Virus record (IMG/VR): IMGVR_UViG_3300020450_000008
Direction: 5' to 3' (one strand)
DNA length: 64,000 bases
Source: a virus
Lineage: Duplodnaviria > Caudoviricetes
Position 1 is the first letter of the stretch. Each line of letters starts with the position of its first letter. Position numbers and translations under genes: made by a program. This document shows, piece after piece, positions 5,656 through 48,016 of this stretch. Under the pieces are notes generated by a model that was not told the DNA's origin, did not search any database, and worked only from the letters and a program-made list of their open reading frames with translations.

Positions 5656-6144
5656 TTGGCTGAAGAGTTTACAAATTATAACTATTTTCAACCTTCTCAG
5701 TTTAAGGTTAACATCGATAGTAAAAAGTATCCTAACTTAGAGTTTTATTGTCAAAATGTATCTCATCCGGGTATTGCTGTCAGTGGTGCTATTGTTCCTG
5801 TATCTAGACTATCAACGATATCAGTACCTGGTGATACATTAAACTATGATGAACTTGTGTTAGATATTATTGCTGATGAAAACTTTAAAGCGTATGATGA
5901 ATTTTATACTTGGTTACAGTCTCTTACTCAAGAAAGATCTGAACCTACTGATAAGTTTATTGAAACAGATATAATTTTGTCGATATTATCTAGTGCCAAT
6001 AATATTATTAAACAGTTTAAATATATAAATTGTGTACCTACAAGTCTTGGAGCAGTACAGTTTCAAGCTACAGTAGCTGATACAGACATAATAACATTTC
6101 CAATAACATTTAAAATAGATACGTTTGAATCTTTAACAGTATAA
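5656..6144 (+). CDS. gp3: Tail completion/terminator protein, gp3-like
   Basis: NYFQPSQF, YPNLEFYCQNVSHPGI, PGDTLNYDEL..F..DENFKAY pattern of gp3/gp19-like tail proteins; conserved position before uvsY. TTG start. Confidence 0.75.
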   Translation: MAEEFTNYNYFQPSQFKVNIDSKKYPNLEFYCQNVSHPGIAVSGAIVPVSRLSTISVPGDTLNYDELVLDIIADENFKAYDEFYTWLQSLTQERSEPTDKFIETDIILSILSSANNIIKQFKYINCVPTSLGAVQFQATVADTDIITFPITFKIDTFESLTV

Positions 6145-6145
6145 T

Positions 6146-7003
6146 ATGATAAATCCAAAAGAGGTGCCTTCTCAAAAAGGTTATTTGAAGGCTCCAAAAC
6201 CAATACCAAAAACGGAATATAGAGGTATCATAATTTTTTCAAATAAAAATTGTGGATCAAAAGGTGTGGTGCGATTTTTGACTTATCAAATATATGAGCA
6301 AATACCATATCAAGAAATGTATGATACACTTGAATCTATGGGTTATAAGGTAAACAAAAATTTAAAATGGGACGACAAATATTGTGATGGTGATGGTATA
6401 TTTGATGATGTCATAAAACAATTTCAAGAAGATAATGACTTAGAGAAAGCAAGAGTTGCCATAAGAACTGTTCTATCTTTTAGACCTATCATGAGAGTAT
6501 TGACTGAAAATGTACCACATGTATTATTGCTTGAAATGCTTCAGTGTTTAAACTATTATCAGGTAAGCGCATTATTAGTCTATAGAAGAAGCTCTGTTGA
6601 AAGACTTTTACAAAACCATGATGATAATAACGATATAGATAAACTAATTGAAGATGAAAAGAAATGTCGTGAAGCCAATCTTTATACGTGGAAATATTTA
6701 CAGAAATATAATTCTATATTTGCATCTGTTACTTCTGAAGATCTTTATTTTATTCAATGTACGCCAATACTAATGATGACGTTTCAATGGATATGCGCTT
6801 CATATATACCATTTATGGACTATCATGTGAATTTTAGATTTACTTTTATTAGAGAACATGATATAATAATAAATAAGAGTTATTTAAATGATGACGCTAT
6901 ACTTATAAGTAGAAAATTAGAAGAATTAGGAGAAAGACCAACTTTTGCTAATATGCACATTCTTACAAGTAAGTATTTTAGACAACTAGGCAAAGTGGGA
7001 TAA
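6146..7003 (+). CDS. Hypothetical protein, possible sulfotransferase-fold
   Basis: N-terminal IIIFSNKNCGS loop and LLVYRR motif loosely resemble 5'-PSB/3'-PB motifs; weak. Confidence 0.3.
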   Translation: MINPKEVPSQKGYLKAPKPIPKTEYRGIIIFSNKNCGSKGVVRFLTYQIYEQIPYQEMYDTLESMGYKVNKNLKWDDKYCDGDGIFDDVIKQFQEDNDLEKARVAIRTVLSFRPIMRVLTENVPHVLLLEMLQCLNYYQVSALLVYRRSSVERLLQNHDDNNDIDKLIEDEKKCREANLYTWKYLQKYNSIFASVTSEDLYFIQCTPILMMTFQWICASYIPFMDYHVNFRFTFIREHDIIINKSYLNDDAILISRKLEELGERPTFANMHILTSKYFRQLGKVG

Positions 7004-45485: not shown

Positions 45486-45822
45486 AAGAGTCCGCAATCT
45501 TTCTGATAGAGAAAGAGATATTTTAGTAACTGACTTACAAAAAACTATCGATATTGATTATAAATTTAATGAAAAAAATTCTATAGAAGAACTACAAAAA
45601 CATATAGATAAAACGTATGACAGTCATTATTCAAAGGAAAAATTTCAAGCAGCAGAGTTCATTATAGACGGCGGTCATGGAACTGGTTTCTGTATCGGCA
45701 ATATACTTAAGTATGCTCAAAGATATGGAAAGAAAGGTTCTAGAGAAGATGCTCGAAAAGATCTTTTGAAAGTGCTACATTATGCAATAATACAATTACA
45801 CGTTCATGATCAAGAATTATAG
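45454..45822 (+). CDS. DUF3310-family protein
   Basis: HY...GFCIGNILKYAQRYGKKG...DLLK..HY. Confidence 0.7.
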   Translation: MMTDYELKLDKRVRNLSDRERDILVTDLQKTIDIDYKFNEKNSIEELQKHIDKTYDSHYSKEKFQAAEFIIDGGHGTGFCIGNILKYAQRYGKKGSREDARKDLLKVLHYAIIQLHVHDQEL

Positions 45823-45830
45823 GAGATAAC

Positions 45831-46187
45831 ATGACAGAATTTAAGAACGGTGCAAGAAAATACGTATCACCAATGTATACACCAGTTATTGGTCCAATAA
45901 AAACTGGTTATGACGCTTACACAACACTACTTTCAGTAGAAAAGTCGCCACTTCGAAAAATGCCACCGATGGTTGGACATCTTGTATTCACAGTTTTAGC
46001 GTGGATGTGGAGTGGAATATTTGGACTTTACATGGGAAGTTACATGATATGGGGAGTAAGTGCGGTAGGTCACATGCTTTTAATATCAGGAGCTTTTATA
46101 ACCTGGCTTATATGGCAACAAGCCGATAGAGGAAATAGTGAAAAAGGATTCTACAACGGCAGAGGTGCTGGTGGAGAACATGAATAA
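45831..46187 (+). CDS. Membrane protein
   Basis: Two TM segments; AGGAG RBS. Confidence 0.6.
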   Translation: MTEFKNGARKYVSPMYTPVIGPIKTGYDAYTTLLSVEKSPLRKMPPMVGHLVFTVLAWMWSGIFGLYMGSYMIWGVSAVGHMLLISGAFITWLIWQQADRGNSEKGFYNGRGAGGEHE

Positions 46188-46195
46188 AAAAAACG

Positions 46196-46224
46196 TTTAC
46201 ATTGTTTAAAAAATATGGTATAAT
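46196..46224 (+). promoter_or_regulatory. Promoter TTTACA-N17-TATAAT driving the RNA cluster
   Basis: Exact motif immediately upstream of the tmRNA acceptor piece. Confidence 0.7.
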
Positions 46225-46230
46225 AAATAT

Positions 46231-46600
46231 ATTATTCGAACGGTGAAGCTGAGTTAAAGTAGACTGGACTCGGGGGCGGTACCCGACGGCTCCACCAAGA
46301 ATACTGGCCCATAAGTAGCCTTCGTAGCGTCATCCGGATGCCACCATTAAGTAGGTGGTTAGCAGTCAGACGACAAAGACAGTAAGATGTCTTAGGGTTT
46401 TAGAACGTGGCTTGGTTCTCCAGTATTCTTGATGGGGCCGAAATAGGATCGACAGATATGGAGATAACGTGGAGTTCGACGGTTAATCGCGTCAAAGATT
46501 AAATAAACTAAACGCAAACGATGATTTTGCACCTGTGGATTACGCCCTAGCGGCCTAATCGCACCGAGCCAGGAGGAGCTTGGGAACAGAATCCTCCACG
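46231..46600 (+). ncRNA. ssrA: Circularly permuted (two-piece) tmRNA
   Basis: Acceptor piece ends ...gggggcggtacccgacggctccacca (CCA at 46295-46297). Coding piece starts ggggccgaaataggatcgac at 46434. Tag frame 46514-46558 encodes ANDDFAPVDYALAA*. Outer ends approximate. Confidence 0.92.
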
Positions 46601-46623
46601 GAATTTGGTCGACGGACCGAATA

Positions 46624-46807
46624 GTGTAGTGCAAGGAAACGCGTCTTACCAAGAGGCGTAACTTGATTGCTCAGGCGTGGTAGCCAGGTTCAAGGCCTAG
46701 CGGCTAAGAATCACATCACCATACCAGGTGGGAGTAAGTTCTGGGAGTTATGAGAGATGGTATCTTGAGCGACCCAGTTGGAGGTATACCCACAGTCCTC
46801 CCTACAC
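46624..46807 (+). ncRNA. Candidate structured ncRNA 1
   Basis: GC-richer intergenic segment closed by gtgtag/ctacac, with internal stems ctggg/cccag, ggagg/cctcc, cacc/ggtg, ggc-gtggta-gcc. Confidence 0.5.
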
Positions 46808-46813
46808 AGTAAG

Positions 46814-46945
46814 AACGATGCCTATGCTAATCTTTTAAAGTTTAAAGATTGGAGTTAATAGGTTCGGTTGAAAAAAATCGGTAAGATCGTTGGGGTGATG
46901 CCCTAATACATCCGCGGGAAGCCTATGGTTAGCTTCCCATCTTTA
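46814..46945 (+). ncRNA. Candidate structured ncRNA 2 with terminal hairpin
   Basis: aacgat/atcgtt closing stem, cctat/atagg and aatcttt/aaagatt stems, ggg-gtgatg-ccc, then gggaagc/gcttccc hairpin plus U-rich tail. Confidence 0.4.
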
Positions 46946-46984
46946 TTTGAGTGATATATATTATTAATTTACTGGGAGATTATA

Positions 46985-47197
46985 ATGGCAAAGATTGGTG
47001 ACGATATTAAAGAAGCAATGATAGCACACGCAAAAGGTCATATCGAAAAGCACAAAATGAATGTAAAGATTTATTTTCGAAATGCTGCAGGTATTGGTGG
47101 AGAAAAACATCCAGATGTTTTAGAAGCCATAGAACAAGAATTAGATATAGTTGCAAAGTACGATGATCAGATTGAGATGCTTAAAAAATATTTTTAA
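46985..47197 (+). CDS. Conserved hypothetical protein
   Basis: AHAKGHIEKHKMNV..Y...AAGIGGEKHPDVLEAIE.EL..VA.YDDQ; GGAG RBS. Confidence 0.65.
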   Translation: MAKIGDDIKEAMIAHAKGHIEKHKMNVKIYFRNAAGIGGEKHPDVLEAIEQELDIVAKYDDQIEMLKKYF

Positions 47198-47200
47198 CTG

Positions 47201-48016
47201 ATGCGTGTACATAGAGCAGGATTGAAAGATAAGGAATGGGAAATTGATAGAATTACAAAAAAGATAGGAGCCTTCTATACTGAATCTAATTGGAGAAAAC
47301 AAGAAGAGATAACCTTTACCAAACCTCGTGCATTTAAAGAAACATTTAAAAATTTTTTATTCTATGATGTAATAATTTTAGCAGATCAACAACATGTTAA
47401 TCATTGGAAGGCATGTAAGTATGCTTTTGACTATTATTGTTCAATAGATAGAGATGTTGAGATAGTAACTTATGAAGAATACGGTTTAAATTTTCATCAG
47501 TTTTGCAAATTTGTAAATTATACTATCAAAGATATTATGAGAGAAGATGCTAATGTATTTAGATATATGGGAGCCAAATACAAACATTATTTTGTACGGC
47601 CTTTAAAAAATAAAGAAGTACAAAAAACTGATACTGTTGTTTATTCTCTCATGGATTCTGCCTTTCTTTCTAGAGAAATCAATTCCGTAGAAAAACAAGT
47701 GCAGTTAGCTTTTAGAGGAATGGAGCCTGAACATCATCAAATATTTAGAGAAGCACTTAAAAATACTAATTGGGTTGATCTTGGAGATAGTAGAAGATTA
47801 GATGATGGTCCAAGTTTATTAGATAAATTAGAACTTATAAGAAGATCTAATTTTTATATTGGAACAGCATGCAGTTGGTCGCAATGGGCTCGAAATGTTG
47901 ACACAAAAGTTTACATAATTTATAATAGACGCCCGAGAGATCATAATCACGATATGCGTAATTTAGATACTAAAGATAAGTATCTTATTCTAGGTGAGTT
48001 AATGACGACATCATAA
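47201..48016 (+). CDS. Putative GT-B glycosyltransferase-like protein
   Basis: C-terminal LLDKLELIRRSNFYIGTACSWSQWA resembles GT9/GT11-type acceptor motif; weak. Confidence 0.35.
   Translation: MRVHRAGLKDKEWEIDRITKKIGAFYTESNWRKQEEITFTKPRAFKETFKNFLFYDVIILADQQHVNHWKACKYAFDYYCSIDRDVEIVTYEEYGLNFHQFCKFVNYTIKDIMREDANVFRYMGAKYKHYFVRPLKNKEVQKTDTVVYSLMDSAFLSREINSVEKQVQLAFRGMEPEHHQIFREALKNTNWVDLGDSRRLDDGPSLLDKLELIRRSNFYIGTACSWSQWARNVDTKVYIIYNRRPRDHNHDMRNLDTKDKYLILGELMTTS

Follow-up and report, generated by a model that had tools for sequence, protein, structure and literature searches.

A divergent manA RNA directly follows a permuted tmRNA in an uncultured T4-like marine phage

The DNA analysed here, a stretch of 64,000 nucleotides (IMG/VR record IMGVR_UViG_3300020450_000008; hereafter the window), belongs to an uncultured T4-like marine myovirus, whose DNA polymerase is 54% identical to that of Phage C48C1 and about 47-48% identical to those of T4-like cyanophages. 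The type of its tmRNA, taken alone, points to an alphaproteobacterial host. The region of interest lies on the plus strand and starts with a sigma-70-type promoter-like site (46196-46224; TTTACA, 17 nt, TG-TATAAT; 11/12 matches, TG present), followed by a two-piece (permuted) tmRNA of the alpha type at 46231-46600 (RF01849, 117.4 bits; RF04321, 104.1 bits). The last position covered by the RF01849 model is 46600 and, after a gap of 2 nt, a structured RNA of 209 nt begins (46603-46811), which is the subject of this study. Further downstream there are (i) a variable spacer of 83 nt (46809-46891), containing a small AU hairpin (about 46830-46852), (ii) a terminator-like hairpin (46916-46948) of the form GGGAAGC-(9 nt)-GCUUCCC, followed by the U-run UCUUUAUUU (dG -12.3 kcal/mol), and (iii) a gp33-like gene (46985-47197; 70 aa), recognized by its match to phrog_1811 (3e-26), its 107 viral homologues and synteny, and preceded by its own Shine-Dalgarno sequence, GGGAG. 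The spacer is cleanly absent in one relative (locus L006) and partly shortened in another (L005), which indicates that the 3' boundary of the structured RNA is also a module boundary, and the terminator-like hairpin is nearly invariant in both. A consensus scan overlooked this hairpin, presumably because its 9-nt loop exceeds the limit of 8 applied in the scan.

ARAGORN found neither a tRNA nor a tmRNA in the window; the permuted tmRNA is thus missed by this program. The intervening segment of the tmRNA (46296-46433) is long and GC-rich. RNA contigs that skip positions 46297-46434 carry unrelated letters at the joints; they most likely represent tmRNAs of other organisms with short spacers, rather than processing products of the tmRNA described here.

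A preliminary description of this locus, made from the sequence without database searches, had singled out positions 46624-46807 as a structured non-coding RNA that could not be matched to any named family. Much of this description holds. The segment, located directly 3' of the tmRNA, is a discrete and conserved multi-helix RNA, no tRNA was detected in it by ARAGORN, and its plus strand contains no ORF of at least 40 aa; a spurious minus-strand ORF (46392-46652) overlaps it with just its first 50 nt. The raised GC content is also borne out (0.51 for 46500-46799 vs about 0.28-0.37 in the adjoining genes); for the genome as a whole the value is about 30-35%, compared with 51% in the manA segment. 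The assignment to an unnamed family, however, fails: the comparison with Rfam proposed in the description, in which a hit to a known family was to remove the novelty, returned the manA RNA (RF01745). In a cmscan search against Rfam 15 the match extends over 46603-46811 and all 192 model positions (1-192), with 69.7 bits against a gathering score of 55.2 and an E-value of 1.1e-15. Only three Rfam families are found by cmscan in the whole 64-kb window, i.e. the two tmRNA models and manA. The RNA is therefore real but not new: the manA family has been named since 2010, an Rfam scan identifies the element, and the segment 46603-46811 is almost certainly a new, divergent member of it. The possibility that it constitutes an additional 3' domain of the tmRNA was rejected, since both tmRNA models stop at or before 46600.

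The minimum free energy (MFE) fold, computed independently, agrees with the Rfam consensus nearly helix for helix, across nine helices. The first of these, P1 (46603-46622), is an 8-bp hairpin with a GACG loop, present in both the Rfam alignment and the MFE fold. It had been overlooked in the preliminary description, so that the element is slightly larger than the core (46624-46807) given there. The core is closed by P2, identical with the gtgtag/ctacac helix already noted (46624-46629 with 46802-46807), and contains P3a/b (46632-46665), whose loop L3 has ACC between a flanking U and A; P4 (46667-46672 with 46732-46737), leading to a junction that bears P5 (46674-46685; L5 GUGGUA), P6 (46687-46712) and P7 (46716-46731; L7 AUACCA); P8a/b (46741-46777; L8 GAUGGUA); and P9 (46780-46801; L9 UAUACCCACAGU). 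The two hairpins sharing a UGGUA loop, recognized from the outset (ggc-gtggta-gcc at 46674-46685 and gaga-tggta-tctt at 46754-46766), correspond to L5 and L8. The plus-strand fold has a free energy of -75.1 kcal/mol (z -3.27; 0 of 200 shuffles equal or better) and the minus strand reaches a z of only -0.75, which shows that the fold is strand-specific.

The sequence blocks typical of the family (the GACG loop of P1, AGUG after P2, GUGGUR in L5, ACCA in L7 and GGUA...UCC in P9) are present in the window copy, as they are in cyanophage copies. The manA RNAs of cyanophages P-SSM2, P-SSM4, P-HM1/2 and S-SSM7, which are also marine T4-like phages, have the same nine-helix architecture with a four-way P4-P7 junction. 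There are nevertheless clear differences. In the window copy L3 is UACCA and L8 contains UGGUA, whereas cyanophage L8 is ACUGU; and according to the cmscan alignment the J2/3 consensus of manA, ACUGAAUAAACUU, is absent, being replaced by CAAGGAAACG with a 4-nt deletion. Since the total score passes the threshold, we interpret the altered J2/3, which is invariant throughout the subfamily described below, as the mark of a divergent branch and not as grounds for exclusion. The window phage itself differs from the cyanophages in carrying an alpha-type tmRNA, and its DNA polymerase is about 47-54% identical to those of the phages compared. Cyanophage manA copies score 91-173 bits (PMC9964418, Table S7), so the window copy, with its far lower score, is clearly divergent. 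This low score, together with the loss of the J2/3 consensus, might suggest a chance or decayed, functionless match, but we consider this extremely improbable: the E-value was obtained across the full model, the fold is confined to one strand and, barring alignment error, the idea is refuted by the homologues, whose helices covary.

These homologues were collected from IMG/VR. A degenerate pattern derived from the window copy gave 22 matches, 20 of them true homologues, and a wider pattern gave at least 120, plus four contigs of metagenome-assembled genomes (MAGs). All 115 newly fetched viral loci from the wider search (115/115) were confirmed by a covariance model of our own (R1), and after removal of duplicates the subfamily comprises at least 107 distinct marine viral loci. 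In a plain MAFFT alignment of 15 homologues, pairing is possible in 98.3% of the cells, and both partners vary in 15 pairs, compared with at most 3 in slid controls. In a second alignment, of 50 distinct homologues of greater diversity, both partners vary in 52 of 66 pairs, vs at most 26 in slid controls; having been fitted to the model, this alignment is biased towards the structure. Covariation was seen in every helix except P3a, which was fixed by the search pattern; the P1 stem, for example, occurs as GGUC/GACC, GAUC/GAUC, GACC/GGUC and GUCC/GGAC. Across more than 100 marine viral loci, compensatory changes maintain the manA fold.

R1 gives the window copy 246 bits and also recovers the manA RNAs of S-SSM7, P-TIM40 and S-SSM4, which ties the subfamily to the canonical family through intermediates; most canonical cyanophage copies are not found by this model, which was built from close relatives. 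A blastn search with positions 46150-47000 against 50,697 phage records matched the tmRNA part alone and gave nothing for manA. When 18 homologous loci were scanned with Rfam in gathering mode, manA was reported for two, yet with lax filters all four re-tested loci (4/4) scored 63-68 bits. Sub-threshold scores were thereby rejected as the cause of the missed matches in these four loci; they had been lost because of the default speed filters of Rfam when 130 kb (L086-L107) were searched at once. Two copies in a capsid context score 50 bits, under the gathering score. Routine Rfam annotation will therefore under-report the subfamily, as the default filters miss many copies in long searches.

Among 185,579 species genomes the sole matches are the four marine MAG contigs, NYWG01000240.1 (L238), PBPT01000082.1 (L239), NZGL01000024.1 (L240) and PBPT01000016.1 (L241), assigned to bins of Verrucomicrobiales, Neomarinimicrobiota (twice) and a gammaproteobacterium. 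They are probably phage contigs binned with bacteria, since L238 carries a phage-like tmRNA-manA arrangement. A full-length manA-like candidate occurs in Pelagibacter phage HTVC008M (NC_020484.1, 5037-5223; L236 1498-1690), just upstream of gp32 and overlapping a small annotated ORF; being weak (25.9 bits with Rfam, 7.4 bits with R1), it was left uncounted. A canonical manA occupies the same position, just upstream of gp32, in P-HM2.

The genomic context was determined for the 107 distinct loci among the matches listed. Their commonest upstream neighbour is the major head protein gene (36/107) and the second commonest is the alpha-type two-piece tmRNA (17/107); gp32 lies upstream of manA in six loci and downstream in six. 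With no tmRNA directly upstream in 90 of the 107, manA was rejected as a constant companion of tmRNA. In the 17 tmRNA-linked loci manA lies 1-21 nt after the tmRNA, or after the tmRNA plus a tRNA. All 12 of those re-tested with Rfam (12/12) were confirmed, with gaps of 1-15 nt, tmRNA identities down to 69% and widely varying spacer lengths. The order tmRNA-tRNA-manA is found in L186 and L303, manA is placed within a tRNA array in L150, and in cyanophage S-SSM7 it abuts tRNA-Gly. A strong terminator-like hairpin lies 5-145 nt past manA in 8 of the 17 tmRNA-linked loci, including the window. The searches reveal a large, previously uncharted subfamily. Among its representatives are copies joined to phage tmRNA or tRNA genes, with terminators or convergent genes behind them and with mutually complementary loops.

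A close parallel to the arrangement in the window is provided by the Methylophilales phage Melnitz, which contains an operon of ssrA, glutamine riboswitch and coactivator gene (Buchholz et al. 2022, PMC9004378). The coding part of the window tmRNA is 72% identical to that of Melnitz, and in both phages an early promoter precedes a two-piece tmRNA of the alpha type, which has a structured RNA directly at its 3' end and is followed by a gp33-like coactivator gene; the order tmRNA, structured RNA, gp33-like gene and next replication gene is also the same, with the gp33-like gene of the window sitting where the late-transcription coactivator gene (gp33) of Melnitz does. The RNA in the slot differs: the 209-nt manA of the window corresponds in position to the 49-nt aptamer of a glutamine riboswitch in Melnitz (RF01739, 52.8 bits; MZ577097.1, about 46398-46446; L001 3192-3240). 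In this phage group, the 3' end of the tmRNA thus seems to be a place where various structured RNAs can dock. The Melnitz paper (PMC9004378) does not mention manA, and our genome search of Melnitz and Phage C48C1 gave no manA; the same search overlooked the manA of L186, which scores 65 bits with cmscan.

As the Melnitz element belongs to a true riboswitch class and occupies the same tmRNA-to-gp33 slot, it might be argued that the window copy is likewise a cis-regulatory leader, sensing a metabolite or condition and controlling the gp33-like gene, e.g. via the hairpin at 46916-46948. This would accord with the rating of manA as a probable riboswitch in 5' UTRs by Weinberg et al. 2010 (PMC2864571), a cis-regulatory proposal that rested on the location of manA upstream of co-directional genes. 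In nine of the ten cyanophage copies that we examined (the tenth, that of S-SSM7, abuts tRNA-Gly) an annotated co-directional gene does come next, at a distance of roughly 15-240 nt (about 45 nt or less in five of them), the gene following manA in the window is co-directional, as is the nearest downstream ORF of at least 120 aa in 76 of 88 loci among the matches listed, and in L006 a terminator-like hairpin comes almost directly after manA. Against this, the start codon of the gp33-like gene is 173 nt away from manA in the window, and the spacer that accounts for 83 nt of this gap is dispensable in L006. The downstream hairpin lies outside the aptamer, with about 105 nt between the two and no visible sequence overlap, so that no alternative pairing is evident. 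In 12 of the 88 loci the nearest downstream ORF is convergent, and these 12 represent at least six different upstream-gene contexts (in one of them, gp32 and manA are followed by a convergent ORF of 546 aa); in others a tRNA or a terminator comes directly after manA. The genes found downstream, encoding a tail protein, gp32, RNase H, gp33 and others, have no common function or pathway, and no ligand or function of manA has been published since 2010. We therefore regard a leader function of the window copy as unlikely.

On the upstream side the picture is far more uniform, the nearest ORF of at least 120 aa being co-directional in 97 of 98 loci among the matches listed. An RNA that consistently follows a co-directional gene, and sometimes precedes nothing that it could regulate, resembles the closing part of a transcription unit instead of a leader. 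In the window, the 2-nt gap to the tmRNA leaves no room for a separate manA promoter, and manA would for this reason be transcribed as the tail of the tmRNA gene from the site at 46196-46224, which, judged from its sequence, is the sole candidate promoter for the unit. The hairpin at 46916-46948, with its U-run, is probably the end of this transcription unit. Metatranscriptomic contigs from two studies, 100% identical to the window (46505-46877, 46642-46880 and 46507-46791), cover manA and bridge it to the 3' part of the tmRNA, demonstrating presence in RNA libraries and contiguity; these Logan contigs show neither RNA ends nor strand. They stop near 46877-46880 and 46505-46507, where contig ends are not RNA ends, and none covers the protein genes on either side (45800-46177 and 46934-47400), which in contigs of this kind cannot show absence.

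Such contiguity, the distance of 2 nt between manA and the 3' hairpin of the tmRNA, and the frequent location of manA behind genes for which strong expression is to be expected (the major head, tmRNA and gp32 genes counted above) might also be explained if manA were a 3'-end module, i.e. a compact multi-helix plug that guards the coding piece of the tmRNA, or in other phages the mRNAs for capsid or gp32, against 3'-to-5' exonucleases, or that directs their processing. We find this explanation doubtful: a simple hairpin would suffice for the purpose, manA lies upstream of gp32 in the six relatives mentioned, and the invariant loops (ACC in L3, GUGGUA in L5, UGGUA in L8), combined with nine covarying helices, point to a specific tertiary or quaternary function. 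On balance, our preferred reading is that manA is probably co-transcribed with the tmRNA up to the downstream hairpin and acts as a stand-alone, probably self-associating RNA, rather than as a 5'-UTR switch for the gp33-like gene. Its position behind the tmRNA is easier to reconcile with an independent RNA, possibly one that self-assembles, than with the usual gene-switch label.

Self-association of manA has been described in a preprint of July 2026 (10.64898/2026.07.01.735769, unreviewed), in which cryo-EM of several manA RNAs revealed decamers, octamers and a 60-subunit icosahedral cage. According to this preprint, the assemblies are pentamer-based and held together by intermolecular kissing loops, L5-L7' plus either L8-L9' or L3-L8' and an L6 receptor contact, the L5-L7 interface being common to all solved assemblies; they were obtained in vitro with other family members, at about 3 mg/mL RNA and 10 mM Mg2+ (10.64898/2026.07.01.735769). 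We assigned the loop names of the preprint to the Rfam helices by inference, on the basis of the order of the helices and of their labels (P1-P9, P3a/b and P8a/b). On this mapping, the window loops L3 (UACCA), L5 (GUGGUA), L7 (AUACCA), L8 (GAUGGUA) and L9 (UAUACCCACAGU) are complementary over 5 bp for L5/L7, 5 bp for L3/L8 and 4 bp for L8/L9. The L5/L7 pair, UGGUA/UACCA, is retained with at least 4 bp in 14 of 16 family members, with register shifts in some relatives, and a shuffle test was weakly positive (mean of 4.5 bp for L5-L7 vs 3.5 in shuffles). Among family members, changes in L8 are accompanied by changes in L9 (GGUA/UACC, UGGAAU/AUUCCA, UGCU/AGCG, GAGGA/UCCUU, CUGU/ACAG, CUUU/GAAG), and ACC in L3 and GUGGUA in L5 are constant over covarying stems.

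The window RNA thus keeps the loop complementarities reported in the preprint, which offers an explanation for the paired UGGUA loops. They may be regarded as two "plugs" facing three ACC-containing "sockets", in a pattern that reads the same for intra- and intermolecular contacts. By analogy with the other members, these loops would form kissing-loop interfaces joining several copies into pentamer-based closed assemblies, in which UGGUA of L5 might contact UACCA of L7, and UGGUA of L8 either UACCA of L3 or UACC of L9. Taken together with the genomic context, the report of manA cages calls the "cis-regulatory" label into question, at least for some members of the family.

RNA-only closed cages, built through intermolecular loop contacts, are formed by ROOL and GOLLD, phage and prophage RNAs often located beside tRNA islands (Kretsch et al. 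2025, PMC12286853). The resemblance of manA to these RNAs would be one of behaviour and neighbourhood and not of membership: manA is reported in the preprint to form cages and the window copy, known here from its sequence, adjoins a tmRNA, but there is no relationship in sequence or secondary structure, the window containing, apart from manA, only the two tmRNA families of Rfam. With about 200 nt, manA is also shorter than ROOL and GOLLD, which measure several hundred nt, and the particles reported for it are 8-, 10- and 60-mers, as opposed to 8-mers or 14-mers for the other two. It is conceivable, though in our opinion improbable, that manA has no switch function whatever and adds a third class to the self-assembling RNA cages of phages, ROOL and GOLLD being the first two. 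On this view, large amounts of it would be produced at the 3' ends of strongly expressed transcripts (tmRNA, capsid, gp32), and in tmRNA-bearing marine phages it would have a link to translation rescue; such a cage could, for example, hold or concentrate tmRNA, tRNAs or ribosomal parts during infection. In any case, the subfamily supplies natural test sequences, and a genomic parallel to ROOL and GOLLD, for studies on the purpose of phage RNA cages. The tRNA gene cluster of phage T4 encodes stable small RNAs other than tRNAs, which are co-transcribed with the tRNA genes. To our knowledge no function has been assigned to them, and they may serve as an analogy for the presence of a non-coding RNA within an operon of stable RNAs.

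Two further loci illustrate the variety of elements found beside manA. In L315 (5889-6570), an island of three Rfam RNAs is located 3' of a major head gene and is followed by a tail-like gene; it consists of a glutamine riboswitch (5889-5939, 58.7 bits), manA (6236-6441; 50.3 bits, below the cut-off) and a freshwater-2 RNA (6498-6570, 52.5 bits). In L086 (11416-11817, minus strand), a gene for a SegE-like GIY-YIG homing endonuclease (PF19835, 6e-35) lies 33 nt upstream of manA and RNase H is encoded downstream, a single locus which hints that manA may sometimes travel with homing cassettes.
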